NCBI GenBank assembly: GCA_964612055.1
Contig: CAZTBI010000002.1
Span: 163,529-227,528, forward strand
From: an uncultured Bdellovibrionales bacterium
GTDB taxonomy: Bacteria > Patescibacteriota > Minisyncoccia > Moranbacterales > UBA1568
Reading direction: 5' to 3'
Length of the DNA: 64,000 nt
Below the pieces are notes generated by a model, which saw only the letters and a program-made list of their open reading frames with translations, searched no databases and had not been told where the DNA came from. Shown here in pieces: positions 7,331 to 41,156 of this stretch (its first letter is position 1; the number at the start of each line of letters is the position of its first letter). The position numbers were made by a program, and so were the translations under genes.

Positions 7331-7339
7331 TCTCTGAAA

Positions 7340-7364: not shown

Positions 7365-7369
7365 CTGTA

Positions 7370-7398
7370 TTGACAAAGAGCCTTTTTCGCTCTAGAGT
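7370..7398 (+). promoter_or_regulatory. Sigma70-like promoter TTGACA-N17-TAGAGT driving the inserted GC-rich gene
   Basis: Hexamers read directly; RBS AAGGAG lies 7 nt before the ATG at 7443. Confidence 0.4.
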
Positions 7399-7442
7399 GC
7401 CTCCAGATCAATCCTGATCTTTTCCTTCACAAGGAGACTTCC

Positions 7443-8459: not shown

Positions 8460-8478
8460 GCTGCGCTAAGCAGCGACA

Positions 8479-8514
8479 AGGTTTCTTGTGAGATATCTCG
8501 CGAGGAACCTTTTT
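8479..8514 (+). terminator. Intrinsic terminator after the inserted gene (aggtt...aacct + TTTT)
   Basis: Inverted repeat with inner palindrome gagatatctc, followed by T-run. Confidence 0.4.
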
Positions 8515-8532
8515 CTTTTGTGCAGGAGAGGG

Positions 8533-8590
8533 GAGCGTCAAAAAATGGATCACTGACGTGGGGTACTACTACAACAAAATGCAGTAATCT
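8533..8590. repeat. 58-bp direct repeat, copy 2 (non-coding remnant)
   Basis: Exact copy of 7273-7330. Confidence 0.9.
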
Positions 8591-11615: not shown

Positions 11616-11632
11616 ATTTATAAGCTATTCTT

Positions 11633-13249
11633 ATGCAACATGAATATGGCCCTAAAAGTTATAGGAGGATAGAGATGGTCTTCTTTGTTCTGGCTGTTTT
11701 TGTTTTTATTATCATTTCAGCGAAGTATTTCTCTTCCCCGTCTGGCGGTAGCATTTTGACACATACAAAGGATGCTATTTTGAAAAAGATGAATGCGTAT
11801 TATCTTGAAAAATCATCTAATGATATTGTGTCGCAACAATCTCTAATACTCAAAATTAGTGATGATGGCCGGTGGAGGATCTTTAATGTTGATGGAAGCG
11901 AATCAGATCTATATTCTGTAGAGAATCTTGATGGAAAAATTTTGATTTATGGATTAAAAAAAGGAGTTGCTCAAGATTTATATGTTGACGGGGTGCGAAG
12001 CTACTTCACTAGATCTGAAATGGTCAGTACGGACATACCTCACGATGTTATAAATGGTGACACTTTTCTTGTTCCAGAGCAGGAAGATCTTTTCCCTATT
12101 TTTGGATACCACAATATCTTTGATAGAGAGGAGGATATCAGAGATCCGTATCTGGATATCAGGAAGAGCGATTTTGAGAGGCAGGTACAGGTGTACAATC
12201 ATGAAATTAATTGCCGATGGGCGACTCTTCGTGAGGTTGTTGAAAATTTTATTCTAGTAAATAAGAAATTACCTAGGAATGTATGTGTAATGACTTTTGA
12301 TGATGGAAGGAAGAATAATTATGAAATAGCATTTCCAATTCTTAAGGAAAATGGTATTCGCGCTACATTTTATATTATTTTTGGCCGACTAGGGAGCGGT
12401 ATATACATGACTAAGAATGAGGTAGCTGAATTGTTTCGTGCTGGAAATGAAATGGGTTCGCATACTATGACAGGCGGAAGCCTGGTTGATACAAGCTGGT
12501 TTACTGGTGAATTTACTGATAACGAGCTTAAGAATCAACTCCAAGACTCTAAGGAGATTTCTGAGGTATACTCTTATAACTCTAGAACTTTTGCCTATCC
12601 ACTTGGAGATTGGAATGATAAAGTTGTTACTGCTATCAAAGATGCTGGATATATTGCTGCTCGTGATACTGAGAAGGATGAACAATGGAGAGATCACCGC
12701 GCATTAGCAATAAGTGCAACAGAGGATTTTATATGGCATTTGAATTATTATAAGCCGGAGCTTCGTTTTGATGATGAGATATATCAAAATATGCGCTATA
12801 GCGGTTGGTGGCAGTTCGAAGAAGGCAACCTTGTTTCCGGAGATGAAAATGGAAATGTTTTAATTAAACATGACGTTGATATTCCTAATCAGGGCTACGG
12901 GGTTGTTGTACTCGTAGATCCGAATGATTCAAATAGGAATGTGTTTCTTTTAGAACAAGATGGCCAGTACGTTATAGATATGTTACTTGCAAAAGATCAA
13001 TCGAAAAATATCGATCCATCAGTTTTTATTGATGGTATTAATCTGCCGATTCAGAAGGATGATTCACAAACTTGCACTACACAGGGCAAGGGCGTCTATT
13101 GCCATTATACGATTGAAGCTAGTCTTTCACAGGGCAGGCACACTTTGGATATTATTAATAATAGTGGAATAATGAAACTAGATCGTTTCCGCATTTATAG
13201 ACGCGCTTTAGTGGAGCAAGAATACAAGTTAACAATAACGAAGGATTAA
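11633..13249 (+). CDS. Polysaccharide deacetylase (CE4/NodB homology domain) with N-terminal TM and extra C-terminal domain
   Basis: VCVMTFDDGRKNNYEIAFPILKENGIRATFYI (TFDDG motif); HTMTGGS; AT-rich. Confidence 0.75.
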   Translation: MQHEYGPKSYRRIEMVFFVLAVFVFIIISAKYFSSPSGGSILTHTKDAILKKMNAYYLEKSSNDIVSQQSLILKISDDGRWRIFNVDGSESDLYSVENLDGKILIYGLKKGVAQDLYVDGVRSYFTRSEMVSTDIPHDVINGDTFLVPEQEDLFPIFGYHNIFDREEDIRDPYLDIRKSDFERQVQVYNHEINCRWATLREVVENFILVNKKLPRNVCVMTFDDGRKNNYEIAFPILKENGIRATFYIIFGRLGSGIYMTKNEVAELFRAGNEMGSHTMTGGSLVDTSWFTGEFTDNELKNQLQDSKEISEVYSYNSRTFAYPLGDWNDKVVTAIKDAGYIAARDTEKDEQWRDHRALAISATEDFIWHLNYYKPELRFDDEIYQNMRYSGWWQFEEGNLVSGDENGNVLIKHDVDIPNQGYGVVVLVDPNDSNRNVFLLEQDGQYVIDMLLAKDQSKNIDPSVFIDGINLPIQKDDSQTCTTQGKGVYCHYTIEASLSQGRHTLDIINNSGIMKLDRFRIYRRALVEQEYKLTITKD

Positions 13250-13258
13250 TTTTTTCTA

Positions 13259-14224
13259 ATGAAAAAAAACGCAAAGATTTTTTTAGGAACGGTAATTTTA
13301 ATAGTTGTTGTTTTTTTGTATCAAAAATTCAATTCTCAAGAAGAAGCTAGCCAGACTCAAGGTATGAATGTTTCAGTTTCAGCTAACAACGCAATAGTTC
13401 TTAATCAGGATACCTCAATTAATAGTCAGATAGATGGGGATGGGTTAACAGGATTAAGTATTCTTGACCAAGAATCCAGTAAGACTGAATTCAGCGAGGA
13501 TTTCTCTAGGGATGCTCTTCTTGTAGAAACCGGCTCAATGAATGAGAGTGTTTCTGCGAATTGGTGGCTCAATTCTGGAGCATACCTCTCTATTAGTAAG
13601 GGTCTTGGCGAAACTGTTCAAGGAGAGCTTTCTAAACAGGATGAATGGAGGATAAAATATAAAGATTACAATTCTAGCGAAACCGATGACGGGTATCATC
13701 CACAAAACATCTTCAGGCTTGTAACAAGATATCAGTGGAAGAATTTTCTTCAGGAAAGTTATTTTAAAATTAATCGCTATATTCTTAGCCAAGACAAGGC
13801 TCGGAGTGAGTCAAATGGCCTGCTTCTTTTTAACCGATACCAAGATGGTGACAACCTCTATTATACGGGGCTCAGGGTTGATGGTACTGTTGTTATAAAA
13901 AAGAAAGTTAAGGGAATATACTACACGATGGCTCAGGAGCCTCTCTATCCGGGGAAGTATGATAGAAAGAGTAAGCCGAATCTTCTACCCATTGAAGCCT
14001 GGATAGGATTACAGAGTGAGGTACGAGATAATCCCAACGGAACTGTCTCTATAAAAGTGTACCGAGATAAAGATCGCTCTGGAGACTGGCAGCTTATTTT
14101 GACTGCGATAGACGATGGAAAAAAATACGGGGGAGCGGCTATAAAAAATGAAGGATACGCTGGTATCCGAACGGACTTCATGGATGTCGAGTTTGATGAC
14201 TACAAAATTGAGGAGTTGAAGTAG
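13259..14224 (+). CDS. Secreted/anchored protein, unknown function; possibly a beta-sandwich carbohydrate-binding protein
   Basis: N-terminal TM; no catalytic motif recognised; last gene of the AT-rich block. Confidence 0.5.
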   Translation: MKKNAKIFLGTVILIVVVFLYQKFNSQEEASQTQGMNVSVSANNAIVLNQDTSINSQIDGDGLTGLSILDQESSKTEFSEDFSRDALLVETGSMNESVSANWWLNSGAYLSISKGLGETVQGELSKQDEWRIKYKDYNSSETDDGYHPQNIFRLVTRYQWKNFLQESYFKINRYILSQDKARSESNGLLLFNRYQDGDNLYYTGLRVDGTVVIKKKVKGIYYTMAQEPLYPGKYDRKSKPNLLPIEAWIGLQSEVRDNPNGTVSIKVYRDKDRSGDWQLILTAIDDGKKYGGAAIKNEGYAGIRTDFMDVEFDDYKIEELK

Positions 14225-18307: not shown

Positions 18308-18376
18308 TTACAAGAGACCGACTTGTCCGAAGAAGGTGAGGGTAATCACCGGCAGGAGGGCGAGGAGGAACGCCAT
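18308..18376 (-). CDS. Candidate 22-aa hydrophobic peptide MAFLLALLPVITLTFFGQVGLL
   Basis: GAGGAAG Shine-Dalgarno 5 nt upstream of the ATG; ORF ends at the bidirectional terminator; absent from the ORF track (too short). Confidence 0.3.
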   Translation of the reverse strand: MAFLLALLPVITLTFFGQVGLL

Positions 18377-18677
18377 TGAAACTTCCTCATTCTTTTTCGC
18401 CTCTACTGCTACGTGCTCACAAGTTGTACAGCTTGTCTGTTGAGACTCCAGGGTCTCCATAGTTACATCTGACATACGTTTGTATGTTATTTGTTTTTAC
18501 CTGCCCTCCGCAGGTTTTGTTAAAGAGGGGGTTGAGAAAGAAAAAACGGGCTGTAGACGTGGACGTCCTCACCCGTTTTTCACTTCTCAACATATCTATT
18601 ATAGCGCATAAAAAGAGAAAAGTCAAGGGCTTCTCGCGTGGTACAATAAAGATACCAATTTCTTCTTTCTTTTTTCT

Positions 18678-21218: not shown

Positions 21219-21247
21219 GCCTCTCCAGATGGAGGGGCTTTTTTTGT
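21219..21247 (+). terminator. Intrinsic terminator after the PPIase gene (gcctctcc-agat-ggaggggc-T7)
   Basis: 8-bp stem with one G-U pair plus T-run. Confidence 0.55.
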
Positions 21248-21332
21248 ATGAAAAAGAAAAAACGGCTACTTCGAGGAAGTAGCCGCTTGGGCTTTGGTCT
21301 GGTTCGACCGAGGCTTAGAACTGGCGGTGAAG
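21243..21332. repeat. About 90-bp direct repeat, copy 1 (terminator module)
   Basis: About 98% identical to 22125-22214 (two 1-nt indels). Confidence 0.9.
21251..21285 (-). terminator. Minus-strand intrinsic terminator inside repeat copy 1 (cggctacttc/gaagtagccg + T-run)
   Basis: Perfect 10-bp stem; terminates the 68-aa and 142-aa membrane protein genes. Confidence 0.6.
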
Positions 21333-21337
21333 TTTCT

Positions 21338-21544
21338 TCACTTCCGGCTGGGCATGGGGGTGCTGTAGACGATGCCGATGCCGATGAAGAGAGGCAGGAG
21401 ACCGAACTTCATCACCCAATACGCAGAGTCCTTCCAAATCGGAGCAAATGTCATGACTGCATCAGCCGCGCCGATGAGTACTGCGCCAAGGACTGCAACA
21501 CACCCTCCCTGTAGCACTCGCTTTGTATCTTTGTCCATCTTCAT
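21338..21544 (-). CDS. Small membrane protein (68 aa, 2 TM), unknown function
   Basis: In-frame ATG with GGAG RBS (AAAGGAGTCAGCTATG); the ORF-track version (21338..21817) is over-extended into the upstream gene. Confidence 0.45.
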   Translation of the reverse strand: MKMDKDTKRVLQGGCVAVLGAVLIGAADAVMTFAPIWKDSAYWVMKFGLLPLFIGIGIVYSTPMPSRK

Positions 21545-21576
21545 AGCTGACTCCTTTCGAGTCGGTTGAGCTGGCT

Positions 21577-22005
21577 TTACTTTCCAGCGATGAGGTAGAT
21601 GCCGATACCGGCGAGGATGATGCCGGCAACTTGGCGGAAAGAGGGAAATGACCAGGCAATGACCGAACCGAGGAGTGTCGCGAACACCACCATCATGATG
21701 TTGATAGAGGCGACGAAGATCCAGCTCGGGATGGTCGGATCGACCGACTTGGCGCCGTAGTAGTAGACGGCGATCCCGTTCACGATCCCGACAACCATCA
21801 TGATGCCGAAGTGCCACGAATGGAAGAGCGGGCTTTTCACCATGTCATTCCAGCCAATGGCCAGGTTGCCGATCAGTGTGCCGATGAGAACGAGGATAGT
21901 CACCCACGCTGCCGGCGTACCAGAAATCTTGGCCAGAAGCGGCCAGATCACCATACCAAAGGCAATCAGGGCCGCTGAATACAGATAAGAGGGGATTGTG
22001 CTCAC
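21577..22005 (-). CDS. Membrane protein (142 aa, 4-5 TM), small DMT/EamA-like or unknown
   Basis: GTG start with GGAGG RBS 5 nt upstream; hydrophobic with GxxxG motifs; GC-rich. Confidence 0.5.
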   Translation of the reverse strand: MSTIPSYLYSAALIAFGMVIWPLLAKISGTPAAWVTILVLIGTLIGNLAIGWNDMVKSPLFHSWHFGIMMVVGIVNGIAVYYYGAKSVDPTIPSWIFVASINIMMVVFATLLGSVIAWSFPSFRQVAGIILAGIGIYLIAGK

Positions 22006-22061
22006 GATTTCCTCCGAGAAGGACGAGTTGTTAAGGAGAGTTCATAGAATATGAACCTAAC

Positions 22062-22090
22062 ATGATAGCATATTTTTTATAAAAAGTCAA
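22062..22090 (-). promoter_or_regulatory. Sigma70-like promoter TTGACT-N17-TATCAT for the 142-aa/68-aa gene pair
   Basis: Read on the minus strand; 17-bp spacer. Confidence 0.45.
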
Positions 22091-22124
22091 TAGGTGGTAG
22101 AGAGAGTACTCTTAGTAATGGTTG

Positions 22125-22214
22125 TTTGTATGAAAAAGAAAAAACGGCTACTTCGAGGAAGTAGCCGCTTGGCTTTGGTCTGGTTCGACCGAGGCTTAGA
22201 ACTGGCGGTTGAAG
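22125..22214. repeat. About 90-bp direct repeat, copy 2 (last codons plus terminator of the 275-aa secreted protein gene)
   Basis: About 98% identical to 21243-21332. Confidence 0.9.
22133..22167 (-). terminator. Minus-strand intrinsic terminator inside repeat copy 2
   Basis: Same 10-bp stem hairpin plus T-run as copy 1. Confidence 0.6.
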
Positions 22215-22972
22215 AGGAGTCTGTCAGCCACTGACTGTCCCATGACGGCGATGTTGCCGGGCACGAGGTAGTAGTTGGTGGCCGAGCAGCTAGCCGATGC
22301 GCCCTGGCCCGGCGTGTTGACCAGGTGAACCCGGAAGCCAGCGCTGTTCTGGTCGGTCTTCGGGACGTTGATCCCGCAGGAGAACCCTTCAGCGTGGCAG
22401 GAGACGACGGTGCCGTCGGCATTGGTCGGGGGACCGTTGGGGATGCCGCGTTGGTCGACCCTGACATCCGTCTTGCCACCAGAGACCACGAGGCCTGAGA
22501 GCCACTTGGTGCCGGAGACAAAGGGTTCCCAGGAGCCGTCGAGGAAATCCTCGGGCTTGGGAGCCTGGACCGGGCCGCCGACTGCGTAGCGGTACCGGAG
22601 GGTGCTGTAGCCGACGTAGAAGTCCGCGCCGTTCTTGAAAGCCGGCGAGACGTTCAGGTCGTAAGCGCGCCACTGCAGCAACGGTGCGATGGAGCTGAAG
22701 CCCCAGACATCGTTCTTCCCTTGACCCACGTAGAGAAGGTGAGTGGGACTTTGGTTGCCCTGGCCGACACCGCGCAGCGACATCTGAACTGGCTGGTTCG
22801 GTTCGCCATCGAGACGGAGCTCGGCGGAAACCTGGCCATACAGGAAGACAACGCGGTCGGCGACGGGTGGGGCGGTGATGCCGTTCACGCAGTCGACTGC
22901 CGGGTATTGTGCCCAAGCCTGGGCAGCAGAAACGGCGACGACGATCGTGATGATGGAATGCTTGATTGCCAT
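22196..22972 (-). CDS. GC-rich secreted protein, unknown function (signal peptide MAIKHSIITIVVAVSAAQAWAQ)
   Basis: Start trimmed to the ATG at 22972 behind a strong GAAGGAGGGG RBS; third positions strongly G/C-biased; several Cys. Confidence 0.6.
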   Translation of the reverse strand: MAIKHSIITIVVAVSAAQAWAQYPAVDCVNGITAPPVADRVVFLYGQVSAELRLDGEPNQPVQMSLRGVGQGNQSPTHLLYVGQGKNDVWGFSSIAPLLQWRAYDLNVSPAFKNGADFYVGYSTLRYRYAVGGPVQAPKPEDFLDGSWEPFVSGTKWLSGLVVSGGKTDVRVDQRGIPNGPPTNADGTVVSCHAEGFSCGINVPKTDQNSAGFRVHLVNTPGQGASASCSATNYYLVPGNIAVMGQSVADRLLFNRQF

Positions 22973-23067
22973 GGTGCGGCCCCTCCTTCGAGGCCTAATT
23001 TTGAAGTTGCTGGGTTGCGTCATTCCCTCTCGGGAATGGATTTCCCAGTACCGGAGGATGACATGAA

Positions 23068-23096
23068 ATACTAACAGGAAATACCATTCCTGTCAA
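23068..23096 (-). promoter_or_regulatory. Consensus sigma70 promoter TTGACA-N17-TAGTAT for the secreted protein gene
   Basis: Read on the minus strand; followed by an about 95-nt leader containing hairpin ccattccc-gaga-gggaatgg. Confidence 0.55.
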
Positions 23097-23102
23097 GAGG
23101 CA

Positions 23103-29220: not shown

Positions 29221-30990
29221 ATGATTGGTATCAGCGATATTGTGACGAGTCGCGAATTTCGACTACCCCTATTCTTGGTAGCTATTACGGCTATTGCGCT
29301 GCTTTTTTCTTCGCCGTATCTCTACGGGCTCGCTATACTGATTGGTCTCTTCCGTCTCGTGACTGAGTCGTACGAGCGACTCCGGATGGGGAAGTGGAGC
29401 TTGGACTATTTGGCACTGCTGACACTGCTCACAGCACTTCTTCTGGAAGAATGGTTAGCCGGATCAGTGATTGCGCTCATGGTGGCGGTGAGCGCGGCGC
29501 TCGAAGCCTATGGCACCAAGCAGGCAGAGAAAACCTTGCATGGACTTTTTGAGGCCTTGCCAAAAACTGTACTCTTGAAACACGGAGCGCATGAAACGGA
29601 GGTACCACTTCAGAGCATTGTTTCTGGCGATACCATTCTCATTCGCCCCAATGAGATGCTCGCGTTTGATGGCTATCTTCTTTCGGAAAAGGCGCTCTTG
29701 AATGAGGCGAACCTGACTGGGGAAATGGAGCCGGTGGTCTATGAAGAAAAGAAACTTTTGAAGAGTGGAAGTGTCAATGTAGGAGAGAATTTTACTTTTG
29801 AAGTGCGTGGAGATTTCGAACACTCCAGTTATCGAAAGATATTGAAACTGGTTGAGGAGGGAAAAAAACATCCCTCTCCTTTGACGCGTTTGGCAGAGCG
29901 TTATAATATTTGGTTTTCACTTTTTGCTGTGACGCTTTCTTTCGGCGCTTACTTTATTTTTGATGACTGGAATCGTTTCTTGGCAGTCTTGGTCATTGCG
30001 ACACCGTGCCCACTCCTCATTGCTGCTCCGATGAGTTTTATTGGAGGTTTAAACAAAGCAGCGCGCAAAAATATCATTGTGAAAAGTCCGTATGCGCTGG
30101 AGCTCCTGGCTAAGACGAAAGTATTTTTTTTCGACAAGACGGGGACACTCACTCTGGGTGAACCGAAATTAAAAAAAATAGAGTTGCTTGATCGAGGCCT
30201 TGATCAAGAGCAGGCACTTGATTTGGCCGCTTCCCTGGAGCAACACTCCTTTCATCCCTTGGCTCGTTCTCTCGTGAAAGAGCACCAGGCTCATTCGCAT
30301 CGCGCCCTTTCTCAAGTGGAGGGTGTGGAAGAAAAGATTGGCGAAGGAATCTTTGGCATGATTCACGGTAGTCGTTTTGGTGTCGTAAAGTCCCGAGGGA
30401 CAGTTGAGGGACTGGCTGTTGATTTGACGCATGAAGATAAACCGATTGCTCGATTTTTCTTTGATGATGAATTGAAGAGCGACGTTTCGGAAGTCTTTGC
30501 GTATCTGCGGGAACGTGGCTACTCCTTCGGGATTTTGACTGGTGATAAGAAGGCGAATGCCGAGCGCCTGCTTGGCTCTTTCGGGTTACCTATTTACGCT
30601 GAGTCGACACCGGAGAAAAAAGTGGCTTTGGTACAGCAGTATCAGAAACAAGGGAAGTTGGTCGGGATGATTGGTGATGGAGTGAACGATGCTCCAGCAC
30701 TTGCCTTGGCTGATATCGGAGTAGTCTTTTCTGGAAATGAAAACAGCGCCTCCATTGAAGCGGCTGATGTGGCGCTTCTCGGGCCCGACGCCTGGAGTAT
30801 CCGTGATGCTATCCATATTGGGCGACGCTCGTACCACGTCGCACTCCAGAGTATCGCTCTTGGTATCGGACTCTCCTCTGTCGGTATGATACTTGGATTC
30901 TTTGGTTTTATCCCGCCGCTGCAAGGCGCTATTCTTCAAGAAGTTATTGACGCTGTGGTGATTGTAAACGCCCTTCGCTCAACGTATTAG
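29221..30990 (+). CDS. P1B-type heavy-metal ATPase with PCP intramembrane motif; no N-terminal metal-binding domain
   Basis: TPCPLLIAAP in TM6; DKTGTLT; [10 protein letters not shown]. Confidence 0.8.
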   Translation: MIGISDIVTSREFRLPLFLVAITAIALLFSSPYLYGLAILIGLFRLVTESYERLRMGKWSLDYLALLTLLTALLLEEWLAGSVIALMVAVSAALEAYGTKQAEKTLHGLFEALPKTVLLKHGAHETEVPLQSIVSGDTILIRPNEMLAFDGYLLSEKALLNEANLTGEMEPVVYEEKKLLKSGSVNVGENFTFEVRGDFEHSSYRKILKLVEEGKKHPSPLTRLAERYNIWFSLFAVTLSFGAYFIFDDWNRFLAVLVIATPCPLLIAAPMSFIGGLNKAARKNIIVKSPYALELLAKTKVFFFDKTGTLTLGEPKLKKIELLDRGLDQEQALDLAASLEQHSFHPLARSLVKEHQAHSHRALSQVEGVEEKIGEGIFGMIHGSRFGVVKSRGTVEGLAVDLTHEDKPIARFFFDDELKSDVSEVFAYLRERGYSFGILTGDKKANAERLLGSFGLPIYAESTPEKKVALVQQYQKQGKLVGMIGDGVNDAPALALADIGVVFSGNENSASIEAADVALLGPDAWSIRDAIHIGRRSYHVALQSIALGIGLSSVGMILGFFGFIPPLQGAILQEVIDAVVIVNALRSTY

Positions 30991-31005
30991 ATTGAGTTTG
31001 AACTC

Positions 31006-31035
31006 TTGACTTTGTCTGTTTGCTAAAGGTATTCT
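31006..31035 (+). promoter_or_regulatory. Sigma70-like promoter TTGACT-N18-TATTCT for cassette a
   Basis: Read directly; RBS GAAAGG before the ATG at 31078. Confidence 0.4.
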
Positions 31036-31077
31036 TGTGGGGCAGTAGTTCCTCAACCCCATACCGAAAGGTACACC

Positions 31078-31824
31078 ATGAGTGCAGAACTGATAAACAT
31101 TCAGGCACAGGCAAACTTTTTCAACTTGAGCCAGAATCCCTATCCTGGCCGAGGGATCGTGGCTGGTCTCGACGAAACAGGCCAGTACATGGTTCAGGTC
31201 TACTGGATCATGGGGCGAAGCGAGAACAGCCGGAACCGCGTGTTCAAGGTTGATGACGAAACCGGGCGACTCTTTACCGAAGCCGCCGATCCGTCGAAGG
31301 TGAAGGATCCGTCTCTCATCATCTACAACGCGATGCTTGAAGCTCCTCCGTTCTACGTCGTGAGCAACGGCGACCAGACAGACACAGTCATCGGTGAGCT
31401 CAATAGAGGGCCGTTCTTTCTAGAGTCTGCTCTGTGCGGAAGGGAATACGAACCGGATGCCCCAAACTTCACGCAGCGGATCACAGCTGTGGGTAAGCTC
31501 GACAGCAGACTCGGTCAGCGCATCATGATGTCGATTTTGCGCAAGTCAAGATTCGGCGACAGGTGCGATCAGCACACCTATGAGCTGCATTCTGGTCCTG
31601 GCTTCGGTTTCTGCGTCACGACGTATTCGGGTGACGGGGACCCGCTTCCGCCTTTCCGCGGTGATCCGCTCCTTATGCCACTTGTGGGCGGAGCGGAGGA
31701 CATCGCACGGACCTACTGGGACGCACTCAACGAAGCGAATCGCGTTTCGCTGGCGGTGAAATGGATCGAGATCGGTAACGGTCGCTCCGACATCTACATC
31801 ATCAACGAGTACACGCAGGGGTGA
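31078..31824 (+). CDS. PurO-like (archaeal-type IMP cyclohydrolase family) protein, GC-rich
   Basis: GRGIVAG...YWIMGRSENSRNRVF and VVSNGDQTDTVIGEL resemble PurO motifs (YRVSSRSFPNRV; VVSNGSQTD); recalled from memory, not searched. Confidence 0.4.
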   Translation: MSAELINIQAQANFFNLSQNPYPGRGIVAGLDETGQYMVQVYWIMGRSENSRNRVFKVDDETGRLFTEAADPSKVKDPSLIIYNAMLEAPPFYVVSNGDQTDTVIGELNRGPFFLESALCGREYEPDAPNFTQRITAVGKLDSRLGQRIMMSILRKSRFGDRCDQHTYELHSGPGFGFCVTTYSGDGDPLPPFRGDPLLMPLVGGAEDIARTYWDALNEANRVSLAVKWIEIGNGRSDIYIINEYTQG

Positions 31825-31877
31825 CGTGAAGTCTCAACTCGTAATAGTCTCAAGCCGCAGGGTATCGCCCAGCGGCC

Positions 31878-31908
31878 TTTTCTTTTTTCAAACAAAACAA
31901 GTTCGAAT
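31878..31908 (+). repeat. Conserved 3' box, copy a (TTTTCTTTTTTCAAACAAAACAAGTTCGAAT), preceded by hairpin gccgc...gcggc
   Basis: Shares the core with the boxes at 32392 and 33096. Confidence 0.8.
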
Positions 31909-31980
31909 CTGGTGTGGACAAACTAAGAAAAAGAGGGTACTCTTCTAAGTCCAATCTCGGACTTGTTCTTCGGGGGAAGT

Positions 31981-32352
31981 ATGCAATATCTGAAGTGGTA
32001 TGGAGGCCCGATCACGGGATTCTATGGCCGGATCGAAATCAATCGGTACAAAAATGAGGGTACCAAGCTTCATTTGACGAATCTTCCTTGGTCCGCCCTC
32101 GTCGAAGAACGCGCGAAGAACCCATTTCCTGACGTTCGCGTCGATCCTCATGGGAGTGACTATGAGTACGAAAAGAGGGCAAATGAGCTCATCGAGCTCT
32201 TGAACACTACCGATGACATCATGGTGTTCAAGATCGCTATGAATACCCTCATCAGGCTCGTTCAGGGCGAGAGGGCGTCACCTATCTATCCCGGGGAACA
32301 GTATCACCCGGACCTTTTGGAGGAAGCCATCAGGCTTTCGGAAGAGGAGTAA
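31981..32352 (+). CDS. Hypothetical protein (123 aa), GC-rich cassette b
   Basis: ATG at 31981 behind GGGGGAAG; no recognised motif. Confidence 0.45.
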   Translation: MQYLKWYGGPITGFYGRIEINRYKNEGTKLHLTNLPWSALVEERAKNPFPDVRVDPHGSDYEYEKRANELIELLNTTDDIMVFKIAMNTLIRLVQGERASPIYPGEQYHPDLLEEAIRLSEEE

Positions 32353-32391
32353 GTCGTCTACCGCAGAAGTCGCATGGCAACACCCGGCGGC

Positions 32392-32424
32392 TTTTTTCTT
32401 TTCTCAAACCAAACAAGTCCGAGC
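32392..32424 (+). repeat. Conserved 3' box, copy b (TTTTTTCTTTTCTCAAACCAAACAAGTCCGAG)
   Basis: Identical to box c at 31 of 33 positions; preceded by a GC hairpin. Confidence 0.85.
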
Positions 32425-32488
32425 TTTATCTAAGAAGTGGGGCAGCTTCTAAAAGAGGTTTTAGTAAGCATCTTTTTGTATTTACATA

Positions 32489-32517
32489 TTGACTAACCTT
32501 CAAAAAAGAAGTATAGT
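32489..32517 (+). promoter_or_regulatory. Sigma70-like promoter TTGACT-N17-TATAGT for cassette c
   Basis: Read directly. Confidence 0.45.
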
Positions 32518-32571
32518 ACTAAGTCCTTAAATCTAAGGGCGAGTTCTTCAATCTAACCTGGGGAGATACCC

Positions 32572-33054
32572 ATGGCAACATACAGCGCCCCTTATTACCC
32601 CGCGCGCATCATCGAGACAGTTTCTCAGGTGATTGCGCTTGGTAGGCAGGCTCAACTTTTCGACCACCATAAGAGCGATGGGTGGTTCACCCTTGCGCTC
32701 AAGGATGGTGCCACGGTCTTGGGTTTTGCGGTACCTGGACCGTTGTCTGCCACGCTGGCATTTGACTATCGGCATCACTCAGAGGAGCAGGTCTCGTGGC
32801 TTCGGTCACACGAACTTCTCACGAGCAATGTTTGGGTCGAACACAACGTGAGCGAAGCGGTGGCTGCGCAGGGCTACGATTTCTACTTCAGCTTTGTCTC
32901 AGCGCTTCCGCGGGAATGGAATGAGGCCATTGTGGTGGTCTCGGCAGTGTGTATGCGTCAGTTCAACCAGAGTGTCATCGACAATCCGGCGTGGCATCTC
33001 AAGAGCAACCCGCATATCAACGAACTTCTCGAAGTGGCGCATTGGACCAAATGA
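32572..33054 (+). CDS. Hypothetical protein (160 aa), GC-rich cassette c
   Basis: No recognised motif; third positions G/C-biased. Confidence 0.5.
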   Translation: MATYSAPYYPARIIETVSQVIALGRQAQLFDHHKSDGWFTLALKDGATVLGFAVPGPLSATLAFDYRHHSEEQVSWLRSHELLTSNVWVEHNVSEAVAAQGYDFYFSFVSALPREWNEAIVVVSAVCMRQFNQSVIDNPAWHLKSNPHINELLEVAHWTK

Positions 33055-33095
33055 CTCGGTCATGGTCACAAAACATAGAAGAGCCTGGCCAGCTC

Positions 33096-33128
33096 TTTTT
33101 TCTTTTCTCAAACCAAACAAGTTCGAAT
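33096..33128 (+). repeat. Conserved 3' box, copy c (TTTTTTCTTTTCTCAAACCAAACAAGTTCGAAT), preceded by hairpin agagc...gctct
   Basis: 31/33 identical to box b. Confidence 0.85.
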
Positions 33129-33154
33129 TTTCTTTCAGGAGCGAAATACCCCTC

Positions 33155-34351
33155 TTACTTGTAGCGGAGAGCTTCTAGGGTATCGATGTGAGAAGCTTTA
33201 CGAGCTGGGAAGACGCCGGTCATGAAACCGACAAAGGCACCGAAGGCGATGACCGTCATGATAAACCACAGTGGACTGTAGAAGAGATCAACAGATTCTC
33301 CACCAAAACGAGTGGCGATCAAGTTGACGAAAAAATTGAGCACTTCACCTTCGATCATGCCCAAGATGACACCGCCTAAGGCTCCGAGGAATCCCATGAG
33401 TGTCGACTCCATGATGAACATGATTGAGATACTGCTTCGGGAAGCACCGATGGCTTTCATAATACCGATCTCTTCGGTTCGTTCGAGGAGGGCAATGGTC
33501 ATGGTGTTGAACATACCGATAGCTGAAACGACGAGCGCAATCATACCGAAGACCATGAGGACGATCTGAACAGCACCAAAGACCTTGTTGGCTTGGTCGA
33601 TAGTTTCAGAAATAGAAGAGGCGTTGAATCCTTTGGCTTCGATCTCTCGGTGGACCTGGTCGAGTATCTGTGTCGAATCACATTTGACCTTGAGTTTGGT
33701 GTAACTGGTGAGGGGAAAGCCGGTGAGTGAACCGAGTGAGAGATAGACGATATTTTCCTCACCGTCTGAAATGCCCGAGATGGTGTAGGAGTTTTTTGGG
33801 GTGAAAGAGCCCGTGCGACTGACTTGCCCGGATGCATCATTCTGGAACAGCGTAAGAGAAACCGTCTTGCCAAGCATTTCTTCAGGAGCGATACCAAAGA
33901 CTTGAGCCACTGCCTTGGTAATGATAACTTTGCTCGTCTCCTCTTCGGTGAAGAGTCGCCCGTACGCTATTTTGATGCCTTCTGATTTAAGAAGCGAGGC
34001 GCTAGAGCTTACAGTATTGATGTCGAGGGTGATGTCGTCGAATTTTCCTTGGCCGGAGAGCTCGAGAACTGGAATGACACCAACAACATTGGGGATAGCT
34101 TTCAGTGTTTCGATGGCGTTGTTGTCGAGAGCGTCTGGGGCATTTTCTTTACCGAGGGTGACGTCGAGTGTTACCAGGGCATCAGAAGTAGTAATTTTTT
34201 CAAGGAGAGTACGCTGGAGTCCATATCCCAAGGAAACAAGAAATATGATGGCAGCGATACCGACACTCATGCCGAGAATAGTCAAAAGCGTTCGCATGGT
34301 GCGAGCCTTGAACATACGCATAGAAAGTTTGAGAATGTCGAAAAAGCGCAT
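33155..34351 (-). CDS. ABC transporter permease, FtsX/MacB-like (N-terminal TM, large extracytoplasmic domain, C-terminal FtsX helices)
   Basis: 398-aa topology typical of MacB-type permeases; downstream of the ATPase gene. Confidence 0.8.
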   Translation of the reverse strand: MRFFDILKLSMRMFKARTMRTLLTILGMSVGIAAIIFLVSLGYGLQRTLLEKITTSDALVTLDVTLGKENAPDALDNNAIETLKAIPNVVGVIPVLELSGQGKFDDITLDINTVSSSASLLKSEGIKIAYGRLFTEEETSKVIITKAVAQVFGIAPEEMLGKTVSLTLFQNDASGQVSRTGSFTPKNSYTISGISDGEENIVYLSLGSLTGFPLTSYTKLKVKCDSTQILDQVHREIEAKGFNASSISETIDQANKVFGAVQIVLMVFGMIALVVSAIGMFNTMTIALLERTEEIGIMKAIGASRSSISIMFIMESTLMGFLGALGGVILGMIEGEVLNFFVNLIATRFGGESVDLFYSPLWFIMTVIAFGAFVGFMTGVFPARKASHIDTLEALRYK

Positions 34352-37571: not shown

Positions 37572-40500
37572 ATGTCTGACTATCTCGCTACTAAGGCGCG
37601 CGCTTTTCAATGGATCGGAATTATTCTCGCCATGCTTGTTTTTGCTGGTGCCTACTGGTATTTCAAAGTGCAGGGATCAACGCTCAATCAGTCGGAAAAT
37701 GCATCGTTGACCAGTGGCTTAGTGGGGTTGTGGTCGTACAATGGTGATGATATGTCGAGTACGACGGCCTATGATCGTTCAGGAAATAGTTTTGATGGGA
37801 CTCGTACCAATGGACCGACGCTTATTGCCGGCAGGGCTGGTCAGGCACTCGACTTTGATGGCACGGATGATTATGTGAGCGTGGCTGACAATGCCTCTTT
37901 GGATTTTACAACGAGTGCTGATTTTAGTATTTCCGGCTGGTTTTATCGTGACACCTTTACCACGGACGATACCATTATTGCAAAGCGCAATGGTATCACA
38001 GCAGCAGATGCTGGCTACATTTTATATATTGATGATGCGACGGATCAGATTATCTTTGAAACGTCTGACGGTACCGATGAATTTTCGACAACATCCGTGA
38101 CGACCTTTACCGCGACCGGTTGGCATCATTTTGCCATTGTCTGGGATGATAACTCTGCCACCAATACCGATATTTATATTGATGGTATAGCGAATAATGC
38201 CACTGATAGCGGTAACTCTCTCGCTCAGGCCTCGGTAGGCGATCTTTCCAATGCTCTGGTATTGGCTCATGGGGCTGAGTCCGATGCCGGCAATCCCTTT
38301 GACGGCAGGCTTGATGAAGTACGACTCTATAGCCGTACGCTTGCCGCAGGGGAGATTAAGAGCCTTTTTGATTTAGGGAACCCTGACAAGCTCAATGCGA
38401 GTATTTCTCAGGACCAAGGAACGGGTCGTTTGAGTGCGGGGGTAGCGGGATACTGGCCACTCGATGATAATTCTGGTACTGGTGCGGCAGATAGTAGTAC
38501 CAATAGTAACAACGGTACACTGACCAATGGTCCGACCTGGACGACGGGACAGATTGGAACTGCTGTTGATTTTGATGGTAATAATGATCACGTTTCTGTG
38601 AGTGATGATATAGCTTTAAATGCTACTGATACGGCTGACTTGACGATTACTGGTTGGTTTAATCGTGATACTTTCACAACTGATGATACGGTCATTGCGA
38701 AACGAAACGGTATTGCAGCTGGAGATATTGGTTATATCATTTACATCGATGATGCTACCGACCAGCTTATTTTTGAGGCTTCTGACGGTACCGATGAGTA
38801 TTCGCTGACTTCGGTTTCGACCTTTACCGCCACCGGTTGGCATCATTTTGTAGTGACCTGGGATGAGAATTCGGCTGCTAATTCGGAAATATATATTGAT
38901 GGAGTAGCGAACAATGCTACTGATAGTGGAACCATTGGCAATATTGGTACCTTGACCAATGCCCTCGCCCTCTTTTTTGGAGCAGAAGCTAATGTTGGCG
39001 TAGGCAACCCTTTTGACGGTAAATTAGATGAAGTGCGTTTGTACAACCGGGTGCTTTCGGTAGATGAGATTGGTCGGCTGTATAGTCTTGTTACGCCAAC
39101 TGGTATCGATGCCAGACTCGATGGCTACTGGTCGCTTGATGGTGAGGATATGTCTGCGACGGAGGCTTTTGATCGGAGCGGTGCTGGAGGGACGGGTGCA
39201 CTTATAGGTACGCCGACGAAATCTTTGGGCAGAGTCGGTCAGGCTATCAACTTTGATGGCACGGATGATGGCGTGAGCGTAGCGGATAACCCTATTCTTG
39301 ATGTAGGAAATGCTGTCGATCTGACTGTTTCGGGCTGGTTTAGCCGAGATACCTTTACGACCGATGATACTATCATTGCCAAGAAAAACAACCCGGTTAA
39401 TACGCAGGCCGGATACAGTGCCTATATTGATGATGCTGACGATAAGCTTTACTTTGACGTCTCGGACAACCCAGACAACTACCAGGTTGTTTCGACGCGG
39501 ACGTTTACTGATACGGATTGGCACCATTTCGCCGTTGTCTGGGATCAAGACTCCGCTTCTGGTACGGAAATATATATTGATGGAGTGGCGGACAATGGTA
39601 CTGACACGGGAACTATCGCAAATGTCGACAGTATATCGAATACGCGTGTTTTCGCTATTGGCGCTGAATCCGATGCCGGTAACCCCTTTGATGGAAAAAT
39701 TGATGAAATACGTGTACATAGGCGCGTTTTGTCAGCAAGCGAAATAAAAAGCCTCTATGATCAAGGGGTTCCTGATAAGCTGAATTCAAGTGTCTCACAG
39801 CCTCAGGGTAAAGGTCGTCCAGAATCTGGAATAGCCGCTTACTTCCCCCTTGATGAAAATACGGGTACCGCTGCTGGTGATACGAGTATTAATACGAATA
39901 ATGGAACGCTCACTAATGGTCCGACATGGACCACGGGGCAGATCGGGAGCGCAGTGGATTTCGATGGAACAGATGACTATGTCACGGTCGCTGATAAAGA
40001 CGTTTTTGATTTTGTGGATAGCAGAAACTTTGCTCTCTCTGGTTGGTTTAACCGTGATACGTTTACCACGGATGATACTATCGTGGCGAAACGAAATGGT
40101 ATCACCGCTGGAGACACGGGCTATATTCTCTATATTGATGATGCCACCGATAAGCTGACTTTTGAGGCTTCTGATGGGACTGATGAGTACCAACTAGAGT
40201 CAGTTTCGACCTTTACCGCGACCGGCTGGTATTACTACGCTCTTGTTTGGAATGATAGCGTGAGTGCTTCAACGAGGCTGTATGTTAACGGCATTCCGGA
40301 AGCTGCCACGGCAACGGGGACGTTTTCGAACGTGAACAGTTTGGCAAACTCCGATGCTTTTCGCTTGGGTGCTGAGTCTGATGCTGGCAACCCCTTTGAT
40401 GGAAAAATTGATGATACAAAGCTTTACAACCGCACTTTATCAGGTGATGAGGTGGCGCAAATCTATCGACTCACGACACCGACCGGTATCGATACCAGTC

Positions 40501-41156
40501 TTCGAGCGTACTGGCCTTTCAATGGCGGAGATACGTCTGGCACGATTACTATGGATCGTTCAGGTGGAGGGAATACTGGCACGCTTACGAATACCCCAAC
40601 CAAAACTATCGGTAAAATAGGGCAGGCACTTTCTTTCACGGGGGCGGATAGTGGCACGAACCAATATGTGAATATTCCTTCTGCCACCCTTACTTCGACG
40701 GATAATTTTACTGCTCTTACTCTGTGTGCTTGGATAAAACCTGGTGATCAGATTAATCAATTTCCGGTAATAATAACAAAACATTCGACCTTCTTTACTT
40801 CATGGGATCTCTATCTTGAAGATGGCGGCACTGGGCCGCATGGTTTTGGGACATCTGCGTGGGGGAATTACGTGAGTTCTTCATCGGCACCTCTGGTGCA
40901 GGGAGTATGGGCACATATCTGTGGTGTCCAAGCAGGACAAAATGCTTCAACATACACGTTGTACTATAACGGTACTGATATCACAGGAACTCCGAATGGG
41001 ACGGGGGCCAGAAGTAGTGATACCGGTGGCGACGTATCAATCGGAACATTTGATGCGAGCTCCTGGCAGTACACGGGGTCTATAGACGAGGTGCGTGTCT
41101 ATAATCGCGCCCTTTCAGCAGCGGAAGTAGCGACACTCTACAATCAAGGAAGATAA
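37572..41156 (+). CDS. Giant membrane-anchored surface protein with 5 tandem about 180-aa LamG-like (concanavalin A-like lectin) repeats plus a divergent 6th
   Basis: N-terminal TM; recurring GTDDYVSVAD...SGWFxRDTFTTDDTIIAKRNGI...GNPFDGKLDEVRLY blocks. Confidence 0.7.
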   Translation: MSDYLATKARAFQWIGIILAMLVFAGAYWYFKVQGSTLNQSENASLTSGLVGLWSYNGDDMSSTTAYDRSGNSFDGTRTNGPTLIAGRAGQALDFDGTDDYVSVADNASLDFTTSADFSISGWFYRDTFTTDDTIIAKRNGITAADAGYILYIDDATDQIIFETSDGTDEFSTTSVTTFTATGWHHFAIVWDDNSATNTDIYIDGIANNATDSGNSLAQASVGDLSNALVLAHGAESDAGNPFDGRLDEVRLYSRTLAAGEIKSLFDLGNPDKLNASISQDQGTGRLSAGVAGYWPLDDNSGTGAADSSTNSNNGTLTNGPTWTTGQIGTAVDFDGNNDHVSVSDDIALNATDTADLTITGWFNRDTFTTDDTVIAKRNGIAAGDIGYIIYIDDATDQLIFEASDGTDEYSLTSVSTFTATGWHHFVVTWDENSAANSEIYIDGVANNATDSGTIGNIGTLTNALALFFGAEANVGVGNPFDGKLDEVRLYNRVLSVDEIGRLYSLVTPTGIDARLDGYWSLDGEDMSATEAFDRSGAGGTGALIGTPTKSLGRVGQAINFDGTDDGVSVADNPILDVGNAVDLTVSGWFSRDTFTTDDTIIAKKNNPVNTQAGYSAYIDDADDKLYFDVSDNPDNYQVVSTRTFTDTDWHHFAVVWDQDSASGTEIYIDGVADNGTDTGTIANVDSISNTRVFAIGAESDAGNPFDGKIDEIRVHRRVLSASEIKSLYDQGVPDKLNSSVSQPQGKGRPESGIAAYFPLDENTGTAAGDTSINTNNGTLTNGPTWTTGQIGSAVDFDGTDDYVTVADKDVFDFVDSRNFALSGWFNRDTFTTDDTIVAKRNGITAGDTGYILYIDDATDKLTFEASDGTDEYQLESVSTFTATGWYYYALVWNDSVSASTRLYVNGIPEAATATGTFSNVNSLANSDAFRLGAESDAGNPFDGKIDDTKLYNRTLSGDEVAQIYRLTTPTGIDTSLRAYWPFNGGDTSGTITMDRSGGGNTGTLTNTPTKTIGKIGQALSFTGADSGTNQYVNIPSATLTSTDNFTALTLCAWIKPGDQINQFPVIITKHSTFFTSWDLYLEDGGTGPHGFGTSAWGNYVSSSSAPLVQGVWAHICGVQAGQNASTYTLYYNGTDITGTPNGTGARSSDTGGDVSIGTFDASSWQYTGSIDEVRVYNRALSAAEVATLYNQGR

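Follow-up and report, generated by a model that had tools for sequence, protein, structure and literature searches.

Between the genes for a P-type (P1B) ATPase and a MacB-type permease, two convergent core genes, the 64-kb stretch of DNA analyzed here (the window) carries three small genes on the forward strand, and we are inclined, with modest confidence, to regard this place as a strain-variable accessory-gene slot of the minimal-mobile-element type, furnished with terminator/promoter modules that resemble the promoter-early stem-loop (PeSL) modules of phages. The three genes are:

31078-31824, + strand: ORFa, PurO-like IMP cyclohydrolase family protein, 248 aa
31981-32352, + strand: ORFb, small all-helical protein, 123 aa; the resident gene of the slot
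32572-33054, + strand: ORFc, ORFan, 160 aa

These coordinates agree with an earlier reading of the letters made without database searches (the sequence-only reading), which had also described the genes as GC-richer than both flanks. GC3 amounts to 0.683 in ORFa, 0.637 in ORFb and 0.640 in ORFc against a window median of 0.497 (robust z 2.7, 2.1, and 2.1; ranks 4, 6, and 5 among the 57 window ORFs), and a sliding-window profile (300 nt) rises to 0.56-0.59 within ORFa and ORFc versus about 0.47-0.50 in the flanks. Since the resident ORFb is also GC3-rich, high GC3 by itself is no proof of recent import. The neighbors of the array are housekeeping and transporter genes in Pfam scans of the window ORFs, and the window XseA clusters with a Candidatus Moranbacteria protein, the single protein cluster through which the chromosome is assigned to Candidatus Moranbacteria (CPR).

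The ATPase and the MacB permease border the slot in every relative that spans it (relatives are given below by their locus numbers), and the content between them varies. The order a-b-c is present in the window, L045, and L053, while L024-L027, L044, and L046 contain a-b. L039 has a'-b, in which a', a zinc-ribbon ORF unrelated to ORFa, occupies the place of the latter; ORFc is thus absent from strains L024-L027, L039, L044, and L046. In L040-L042, with flanks 77-83% identical, a syntenic homolog of ORFb (ORFb') stands alone in the slot. Because only ORFb' is found in the 77%-identical relative, ORFb is the old resident, and a, a', and c are later additions. Sites that lack cassette c were found in L024-L027, L039, L040, L042, L044, and L046. 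The empty junction consists of a T-tract followed by ACCAATTT, with the variant CTCAATTT in L027, and no box copy (the box is the repeat that follows each ORF, described below) is present in the alleles examined. As the junction of T-tract and ACCAATTT is common to the outgroup and five conspecific strains, cassette c is read as a gain, and the gained segment can be delimited as follows:

32403-33154, + strand: segment gained with cassette c, replacing ACCAATTT of the ancestral empty site

The ORFa unit, from promoter to T-tract plus CAAACAAAAC (31001-31896), aligns at 77% with L054, where its neighbors are unrelated. The modular character of the cassettes proposed in the sequence-only reading is therefore borne out by the presence or absence of c among conspecific strains, by the replacement of a by a' in one strain, and by the ORFa unit among unrelated neighbors. 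Divergence along the locus is mosaic: compared with L046 and L024, the window differs by 0-3 mismatches per 300 nt over 30478-32402, versus 14-28 per 300 nt in the left flank (29578-30477) and 17-20 in the right flank (first ~1.2 kb of the permease gene). It could be argued that nothing here is mobile, that these are ordinary neighbor genes, and that the repeats between them stem from a terminator/promoter region that was duplicated in tandem at this place long ago, combined with a generic terminator of the lineage. The TTTTTTCTTT(T) tail behind other hairpins, the synteny of ORFb in distant relatives, and the family of ORFa, which is large and common in CPR bacteria, are all compatible with such an explanation. 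It is, however, contradicted by the gain of c and the a/a' alternative within one species, by the ORFa unit in L054, by the GC3 excess, and by an a-b block that is near-identical across strains although their flanks differ by 5-7%, a pattern that fits recombination tracts; we consider it rather improbable. One further locus, L028, shows box a and cassette b in another context, most likely through a chimeric join at low-complexity sequence (its left 119 nt have 25% GC and an open reading frame running into the T-tract, at 1.7x coverage), and it was left out of the comparison for that reason.

Each of the three genes is, as predicted from the letters, a self-contained unit: a sigma70-like promoter is followed by a leader with a hairpin near its 5' end, then by the ORF, and last by an intrinsic terminator; every ORF has its own promoter match and a terminator ahead of it. 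The regulatory features are:

30991-31077, + strand: IG0, ORFa promoter and 5' leader; -35 TTGACT 31006-31011, N18, -10 TATTCT 31030-31035; consensus match 9/12
31854-31888, + strand: terminator a; hairpin 31854-31876, T-tract 31878-31888; from folding, conserved in L054
31915-31980, + strand: ORFb promoter and leader; -35 TGGACA 31915-31920, N17, -10 TACTCT 31938-31943; SD GGGGGA
32365-32402, + strand: terminator b; hairpin and T-tract 32392-32402; from folding, conserved out to L040
32489-32571, + strand: ORFc promoter and leader; TTGACT 32489-32494, N17, TATAGT 32512-32517; SD; consensus match 10/12
33077-33154, + strand: terminator c, box c, and tail; hairpin 33077-33099, box c 33096-33128, tail 33129-33154

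A consensus scan recovered the sites at 31006 and 32489 that had been named as independent promoters. The one at 31915-31943 is present as described, but it matches the consensus at 8/12 positions only, and other strains have TATTCT at its -10. Both hexamers of the ORFa promoter are the same in the homologous unit of L054, with 6/18 spacer positions different, and the ORFb promoter/leader region is conserved in L039 and L044. The ORFb leader is predicted to form a hairpin (AAGTCC..GGACTT, 31947-31964) and so is the ORFc leader (32523-32540); the latter aligns as a homolog of the ORFb' leader in L040 (z 10.3 against shuffles). Common leader words had been pointed out as well: CTAAGTCC and GTTCTTC are indeed shared by b and c, but GTGGGGCAG is not a leader word in both, being located in the ORFa leader and, in IG2, upstream of the ORFc promoter. 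Two further window copies lie in coding sequence, and the word was therefore disregarded. All three GC hairpins with T-tracts said to follow the ORFs fold as terminators, and the hairpin of terminator c is predicted to act bidirectionally and to double as the terminator of the permease gene.

The 33-nt box that the sequence-only reading had placed after each ORF occurs in three copies in the window, all on the + strand (0 expected from shuffles), with a 26-nt core at 31883-31908, 32399-32424, and 33103-33128. Copies b and c match at 30/33 positions on recounting, instead of 31/33. The first two copies lie in these segments:

31878-31908, + strand: box a, T-tract plus CAAACAAAACAAGTTCGAAT
32392-32452, + strand: box b (32392-32424) and a decayed copy of the ORFb promoter in which the -35 is deleted

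The left part of box a (to 31896) belongs to the ORFa unit as judged from L054, and L053 retains a longer repeat, including CTAAGAAGTGGAGCA, at its box c region. A degenerate fourth copy had been suggested right after the ATPase stop; a resemblance exists at 30996-31007 (AGTTTGAACTCT vs AGTTCGAATCT), but it is weak as it concerns the right end of the box only. Whether the box is just a generic terminator motif of the species received a divided answer. Its first 11 nt, TTTTTTCTTTT, coincide with the T-tract of the terminator and are frequently met as a terminator tail in this genome; the TTTTTTCTTT(T) tail also lies 3' of hairpins at 6669, 8510, 18546, 21262, and 22144. The other ~22 nt, by contrast, occur at this locus alone within the 64 kb examined for copies. 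Similarity among IG1, IG2, and IG3 extends well beyond the box (shuffle z 13.9-17.4); the local alignment of IG1 with IG2, for example, spans ~100 nt from the hairpin to CTTCTAA and into the promoter (z 13.9). By these alignments the box is no stand-alone site; it is the best-preserved core of a composite module of 50-100 nt made up of a terminator hairpin, the T-tract, an A-rich stretch, AAGTTCGAAT, and a promoter. Since a copy of the module stands after each of the three ORFs, units b and c have direct repeats on both sides.

The repeats might instead be kept by selection on the box as a cis-regulatory element, in which a UP-like A-rich tract and a near-palindromic AAGTTCGAATTT operator would let a transcription factor co-regulate the three genes. 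Box a ends 6 nt before the ORFb -35, and the ORFa -35 is preceded at a distance of 2 nt by a similar AGTTTGAAC (TTCAAAT there in L054); TTCGAA forms a palindrome, and AAGTYC half-sites are found again in the leader hairpins. However, box c has no downstream gene on its own strand, box b is separated by 65 nt from the ORFc -35 downstream of it, P_a and P_b differ by 7 nt in the spacing from box to -35, and no regulator gene adjoins the array. The box also diverges faster than its flanks, including the adjoining promoter: by eye, L039 differs from the window at 5/24 box positions versus ~5/72 in promoter and leader, and box b of L053 differs at 6/28 positions in a 96%-identical background. A regulatory role as the reason for the repeats is thus unlikely in our judgment.

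The accessory-slot reading that we prefer starts from a long-resident ORFb, which ORFa (or a' in one strain) and ORFc joined later, gene by gene. Homologous recombination, acting on the core genes at either side and on the regulatory modules that recur within the slot, would then carry the units from strain to strain, so that the repeats may be a scar of recombination and also a substrate for it; promoter, terminator, and recombination activities are all predictions here. The process would be analogous to that of PeSL modules in T4-like phages and of "minimal mobile elements" in Neisseria. PeSL modules of T4-type phages (Arbiol et al., 2010, PMC2839356; Comeau et al., 2014, PMC4122927) consist of an intergenic stem-loop terminator, an AT-rich stretch, and a sigma70-like promoter, and they bracket ORFans in a hyperplastic region (PMC2839356). 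The window has the same predicted design: repeated intergenic terminator stem-loops with an AT-rich stretch and a sigma70-like promoter bracket small ORFans, so that each ORF is equipped with a promoter and a terminator, the modules are where indels between close relatives fall, and the slot holds one, two, or three genes among relatives. The hairpin downstream of the -10 in the ORFb and ORFc leaders corresponds to one of five placements in PeSLs. In contrast to the phage case, the modules here lie on a bacterial (CPR) chromosome in a housekeeping context, there are three copies in 64 kb versus ~50 per phage genome, and the empty site of cassette c is devoid of modules, while in phages a single chimeric PeSL remains after excision. 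Simple box-by-box excision and insertion, as in the PeSL mini-circle scheme, cannot give the observed states, because the cassette-c empty site is without a box.

Minimal mobile elements (MMEs) of Neisseria (Snyder et al., 2007, as defined in PMC3082526) are comparable in that two conserved genes stand outside, differing whole-gene cassettes lie inside (here b'; a'-b; a-b; a-b-c), and mobility genes are lacking. MME exchange is credited to homologous recombination in the flanks, and the present locus shows mosaic divergence at its flanks. On the other hand, the definition of MMEs makes no use of recurring terminator/promoter modules or of direct repeats that flank each gene, and natural transformation is established in Neisseria.

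Resemblance to phage morons had also been proposed, and it stands with regard to unit design. Morons are single genes of deviant composition that bring along a promoter and a terminator and have been added between resident (phage) genes. The likeness follows from the presence or absence of whole units and the recurrence of the ORFa unit, together with autonomous (predicted) promoters and terminators and a deviant base composition. It fails in context, as there is no prophage, no phage gene in the window, and no viral relative of the units in PHROG or IMG/VR.

The other comparison drawn in the sequence-only reading, an integron-like cassette array with the box as an attC-like site, fared worse. 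Integrons have an adjoining tyrosine-recombinase integrase gene (intI) with attI, and their cassettes are usually promoterless and expressed from Pc; attC is an imperfect inverted repeat of 57-141 nt that folds as single-stranded DNA and carries R''/L''-L'/R' sites (RYYYAAC ... GTTRRRY). What the locus shares with them is an array of small ORFs in the same orientation with a related, conserved repeat after each, and a content that varies by whole cassettes among strains. But each ORF has its own promoter, the box takes up no structure of its own in folds of either strand, whether as single-stranded DNA or as RNA (when hairpin and box were folded together, the terminator hairpin folded alone, on both strands and as DNA and RNA, with z-scores mostly near 0), there is no GTTRRRY/RYYYAAC pair (GTTCGAA does not fit GTTRRRY), and the cassette-c empty site lacks the box. 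In agreement with what had been noted earlier, Pfam scans of the window ORFs found no integrase, and no transposase or phage gene either. An integrase would have to lie outside the 64 kb, and this reading is very improbable. A wider search, in which related metagenomes had been named as a place to trace the box, yielded chance-type matches and no related locus. GTDB representatives gave 22 single matches versus ~17 expected by chance (own estimate), the two in Patescibacteria being inside coding sequence; the three matches in JGI metagenomes and the four in IMG/VR are all coding. Rfam gave nothing relevant for the whole window at the gathering score or for 30900-33250 at E<=1, and neither tRNA nor tmRNA was found. 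The ORFb leader and box b form an inverted repeat of 26 nt, which was considered as a pair of cassette ends and discarded, as its 21/26 matches were also reached in 5/40 shuffles.

Two other places in the window contain GC-rich genes bracketed by repeats:

7273-8590, + strand: island 1, GC-rich membrane-protein gene 7443-8459 with its own promoter and terminator; GC3 0.72
21240-23100, - strand: island 2, two GC-rich units, 22196-23023 and 21577-22005 plus 21338-21544; GC3 0.79

Island 1 is flanked by a perfect 58-nt direct repeat (7273-7330 and 8533-8590) which is the coding 3' end of gene 6701-7327 and not a regulatory module; the sole other contig with gene 6701-7327 stops at the repeat and thus gave no empty site. 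In island 2 a direct repeat of ~89 nt lies on either side of the second unit (21240-21328 and 22122-22209, 98-100% identical) and comprises the last codons of the upstream gene, its terminator, TTTTTTCTTTTT, and CATACAAA. Island 2 yielded no empty site either, and this, like the coding nature of the 58-nt repeat, counts against the slot reading that we prefer. The top six GC3 ORFs among the 57 are exactly the ORFs of the three repeat-associated islands. The architecture of the slot is thus repeated at two more places, which is in line with the slot reading. The distribution also raises the possibility that a recombinase or integrase encoded elsewhere and acting in trans inserts promoter-gene-terminator units just past gene 3' ends or terminators and duplicates 50-100 nt of target, much as a CRISPR repeat is duplicated at spacer insertion, which by analogy might build repeat-unit-repeat arrays; both the insertion and this manner of array building are improbable in our estimate. 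At least three independent units in 64 kb have direct repeats of a similar size range (58, 89, and about 47-100 nt); the youngest two show complete or almost complete identity, both begin in the last codons of the upstream gene, and the inserts are all GC3-rich. Against this, the three repeat families have no common motif for a site-specific enzyme beyond the T-tract, the units have no terminal inverted repeats (the one candidate being at chance level), the cassette-c empty site lacks even one repeat copy, and the window encodes no candidate enzyme. It is doubtful, if conceivable by analogy from the arrays at the three places, that CPR bacteria of this lineage may own an undescribed system of single-gene capture.

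To our knowledge, gene gain in CPR/Patescibacteria, which have tiny genomes with few recognizable mobile elements, is little documented. In one 64-kb stretch we find three places with added small GC-rich genes that have their own promoter and terminator and no recombinase in sight, most of the added genes being bracketed by direct repeats of 50-100 nt, and at one of the three places public assemblies capture intermediate states with one, two, and three genes. If the pattern were genome-wide, the PeSL/moron logic of phage gene gain would extend to a bacterial chromosome, and there would be a concrete sequence signature to look for in other CPR genomes.

All three proteins are under purifying selection as estimated from sequence divergence, with dN/dS of 0.10 for ORFa (vs L054), 0.15-0.36 for ORFb, and 0.12 for ORFc (vs L038). 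ORFa, described earlier as PurO-like, belongs to PF07826 (E 4.6e-40, 137.7 bits vs a cut-off of 28.1). Because it scores 31 and 26 bits against the NCBIfam PurO equivalogs, below their cut-offs of 150 and 158, it is regarded as a family member and a putative enzyme only. The suggestion of an immunity-gene array found no backing: ORFa, ORFb, and ORFc have no matches in PHROGs or PADLOC, and the structural similarity is just that of generic helical bundles. ORFb and ORFc each fall into 4-5 clusters among 5.8e9 proteins (five for ORFc). The structure model of ORFc is unusable (pLDDT 47). ORFb represents a small protein family of about 30 representatives with a confidently predicted fold (AF2 model, pLDDT 95.8) that has no match in the libraries of solved (PDB) and predicted viral (BFVD) structures searched. 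An alternative TTG start at 31963, upstream of the ORFb start, would give a protein of 129 aa.

The three small GC-rich ORFs lie on the plus strand at the coordinates originally called, in a slot bounded by a P-type ATPase gene and a MacB/FtsX-type permease gene. Since these flanking genes are on the plus and minus strands, respectively, the slot lies between convergent genes:

29221-30990, + strand, P-type ATPase gene, left flank of the slot
31078-31824, + strand, ORFa
31981-32352, + strand, ORFb
32572-33054, + strand, ORFc
33155-34351, - strand, MacB/FtsX-type permease gene, right flank of the slot

The GC-rich codon usage described for the three ORFs was confirmed: GC3 is 0.683, 0.637, and 0.640 for ORFa, ORFb, and ORFc (4th, 6th, and 5th among the 57 window ORFs; window median 0.497). 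Homologues of the three are also GC3-richer than their neighbours in other genomes, on contigs L054, L037, and L043 (the last, an ORFb-homologue context, also carries a reverse transcriptase gene); the resident ORFb homologue of L040 has the same GC3 as its flank. The low dN/dS values (0.10 for ORFa, 0.15-0.36 for ORFb, 0.12 for ORFc) indicate that all three are constrained genes. An own promoter had been proposed for each ORF; a consensus scan recovered the predicted sites at 31006 and 32489, and the third, TGGACA-N17-TACTCT at 31915-31943, is a weaker match whose -10 element reads TATTCT in other strains. The GC hairpin reported after each ORF is present in all three cases, followed by a T-tract (predicted terminators). 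ORFa, called PurO-like in the sequence-only reading, is indeed a PF07826 (IMP cyclohydrolase-like) protein, but its score is far under the curated PurO equivalog cut-offs. Its family is very large (>7,900 hits), with members labelled IMP cyclohydrolase in Moranbacteria, Andersenbacteria, and Paceibacterota MAGs. ORFb and ORFc gave no matches in Pfam, NCBIfam, PHROG, or PADLOC, and IMG/VR contained no relatives of either family. ORFb and its homologues (P0006-P0009, P0037-P0064) form a family of small proteins of about 115-155 aa with a very confident five-helix AlphaFold model (pLDDT 95.8), which matched no PDB or viral structure significantly; the family has no Pfam entry. The predicted structure of ORFc was of too low quality for use.

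Relatives were gathered by exact-protein and homologue look-ups and come from many independent assemblies. Slot content varies among them, with slot lengths of 716, 1011, about 1420, and 2164 nt. In L040-L042 (flanks 77-83% identical) an ORFb homologue with 56% aa identity is alone in the slot, and the box, the 33-nt repeat that follows each of the three ORFs in the slot of the window and starts with the terminator T-tract, is absent everywhere. In the conspecific contig L039 (flanks 96.6% identical) the first gene is another one, a', whose 96-aa product resembles the DnaJ CxxCxGxG zinc-finger region in Pfam only weakly and below threshold; a' has its own predicted promoter and a hairpin leader, and downstream of it come, in this order, a terminator, a box variant, and ORFb. 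Other strains (L024-L027, L044, and L046) have units a and b, and the a-b-c state is found in the window, L045, and L053. ORFb is thus the old resident of the slot, and ORFa, a', and c are additions. Downstream of ORFb, the arrangement terminator - TTTTTTCTTTT - ACCAATTT - permease stop is common to distant relatives and five c-less conspecific strains (L027 has the variant CTCAATTT), so the empty state is ancestral and cassette c (32403-33154) is a gain in which 8 nt were replaced. The box is absent from these alleles lacking cassette c, and the polymorphism therefore cannot have arisen by simple recombination between boxes b and c. One strain (L044, 2613-3035) has an extra low-GC (40%) gene between the permease and ABC ATPase genes, a 23S-rRNA-IVS/bAvd-like four-helix-bundle gene with TTAGTC/GACTAA-rich words on its flanks. 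In L028 (1-119) a 25%-GC coding sequence meets box a precisely at the T-tract. If real, this join would provide a second genomic context for cassette b; it was discarded, as the contig has 1.7x coverage and the join is most likely an assembly chimera at low-complexity sequence.

Outside the species, the nearest homologue of ORFa (79% aa identity) is in L054, where the neighbour genes have no counterpart in the window. Window positions 31001-31896 align to L054 at 77% nt identity, an alignment that takes in promoter, leader, ORF, terminator hairpin, T-tract, and CAAACAAAC; the two promoter hexamers are unchanged, and the spacer between them differs at one third of its positions. The left two-thirds of box a therefore belongs to the ORFa unit as its 3' end. 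The right end of box a, AAGTTCGAAT, falls outside the unit and is similar to AGTTTGAAC upstream of the ORFa promoter. Units would thus travel together with their regulatory sequences. Compared with L046 and L024, only 0-3 mismatches/300 nt occur across units a and b together with the final ~500 nt of the ATPase gene, whereas 14-28 mismatches/300 nt are found to the left (29578-30477) and 17-20 to the right, in the first ~1.2 kb of the permease gene. Such a mosaic is the pattern expected if the a-b block had been exchanged between strains by homologous recombination.

Local alignment showed that the spacers after ORFa and ORFb (IG1 and IG2) share about 100 nt of homologous sequence, which starts at the terminator hairpin, spans the T-tract and box, and extends into the ORFb promoter. 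In IG2 this promoter copy has lost its -35 hexamer, and a new AT-rich stretch with the strong ORFc promoter comes after it. In L053 the copy downstream of ORFc retains CTAAGAAGTGGAGCA, which brings the repeat around cassette c to about 60 nt in that contig. Taken together, the IG1/IG2 homology and the longer L053 copy show that the repeated unit is a composite terminator + A-rich + promoter module, with the box as its best-preserved core. The leaders of ORFc and of the L040 ORFb homologue are themselves homologous (z 10.3), which indicates that regulatory pieces have been shuffled between genes. A short hairpin built on (A)GTCC opens the leaders of b, c, a', and the L038 ORFc homologue.

The 26-nt box core occurs three times in the 64-kb window, always in the slot and on the plus strand (expected count 0 in dinucleotide-preserving shuffles). 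Copies b and c are identical at 30/33 positions by our recount, not 31. The first 11 nt of the box, TTTTTTCTTTT, occur 6 times in the window (0.2 expected), and the shorter tail TTTTTTCTTT(T) is also seen after hairpins at 6669, 8510, 18546, 21262, and 22144; this part of the box is a terminator tail of frequent occurrence in the genome. A generic terminator motif describes the first 11 nt, but not the remaining ~22 nt, which within the window are limited to the slot. Degenerate box patterns scanned against GTDB species representatives, JGI metagenomes, and IMG/VR returned single matches only, in numbers close to chance expectation by our estimate, and all those inspected were inside coding sequence. 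By eye count, L039 differs from the window at 5/24 box positions compared with about 5/72 in the adjoining promoter and leader, and box b of L053 differs at 6/28 positions against a background of 96% identity. This faster divergence speaks against a protein-binding or recombination site under tight constraint. The box remained unpaired in folds of either strand, as ssDNA or RNA; the terminator hairpin alone pairs, and most z-scores are near zero. An attC-like fold of hairpin plus box was thus not found, and the suggested integron-like cassette array is rejected, as every defining feature tested fails. Pfam scans of the window ORFs detected no integrase, in agreement with the sequence-only reading, and no transposase or phage genes.

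The evidence best supports a strain-variable accessory slot resembling a minimal mobile element (MME), combined with predicted, repeated terminator/promoter modules resembling promoter-early stem-loops (PeSLs). In Neisseria an MME is defined by two conserved genes with whole-gene cassettes between them that differ among strains, exchanged via homologous recombination (PMC3082526). PeSLs of T4-type phages flank ORFans in hyperplastic regions and were proposed to mediate modular shuffling (PMC2839356; PMC4122927). The slot modules are likewise repeated composite terminator/promoter elements; they fall outside the PeSL family in residing on a bacterial chromosome and in leaving no module at the empty site. 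The proposed likeness to phage morons holds for the form of the units but not for their context.

A repeat search over the whole window revealed two more cases of repeat-bracketed GC-rich units:

7273-7330 and 8533-8590, + strand, perfect 58-nt direct repeat bracketing a 1.2-kb insertion
7443-8459, + strand, GC-rich multi-pass membrane-protein gene (GC3 0.72) inside the 58-nt repeats
21240-21328 and 22122-22209, - strand, ~89-nt direct repeat (98-100% identical) bracketing a GC-rich two-ORF unit

The upstream gene 6701-7327 supplies the 58-nt repeat, namely its final 55 nt and the stop codon. The inserted gene has its own predicted terminator-promoter upstream (promoter TTGACA-N17-TAGAGT) and terminator downstream, and no recombinase was found near the insertion (7273-8590). 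The 89-nt repeat is made up of the terminal codons of 22196-23023, the GC-rich gene upstream, together with a 13-bp-stem terminator, TTTTTTCTTTTT, and CATACAAA. The region 21240-23100 (- strand) holds two GC-rich units (GC3 0.79), the first encoding a 275-aa secreted-looking protein and the second, bracketed by the 89-nt repeat, an EamA-like 142-aa protein and a 68-aa membrane ORF. The six ORFs of highest GC3 in the window are precisely the six large ORFs of the three islands. No empty alleles of the 58-nt and 89-nt sites were recovered; the sole other contig with 6701-7327 stops at the repeat. Direct repeats of 50-100 nt of local sequence occur on both sides of a unit at least three times in 64 kb, twice near-perfect; the slot/module reading does not account for their first acquisition. 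A dedicated insertion process that duplicates its target would make this repeat-unit-repeat pattern, and its recurrence speaks for such a process, which we nevertheless consider improbable.

Pfam identified housekeeping and envelope functions among the window ORFs (Suf, IF3, MnmA, Dus, Lgt, PFOR, XseA, copper ATPase, and glycosyltransferases); no tRNA, tmRNA, or Rfam families were found in the window. Assignment to CPR/Patescibacteria from the window proteins rests on a single cluster, in which XseA groups at 90% identity with a protein named 'Candidatus Moranbacteria bacterium'. Four co-directional low-GC genes at 8740-14224 (GC3 about 0.32-0.37, median 0.50) encode a GT2 glycosyltransferase, a PMT_2-like protein, a polysaccharide deacetylase, and a protein of no assigned function, and look like a separately acquired envelope-glycan island. 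At 18308-18660 (- strand) a strong promoter match (TTGACT-N17-TATAAT) precedes a leader that contains a hairpin and TTTTTTCTTT (around 18546); the ORF downstream of it (18308-18475) encodes 55 aa and has a hydrophobic tail. The leader, which has no Rfam match, may be an attenuator. Three function-unassigned paralogues (6701-7327, 56987-57940, and 58181-58996) have conserved segments of 66-93% nt identity in common, among them a Cys-rich C-terminal region. The gene at 37572-41156 encodes a 1194-aa Laminin_G_3/Toxin_R_bind_N protein that diverges strongly between relatives and contains four internal repeats of ~700 nt each (37851-40256; 62-71% identical over 300 nt).
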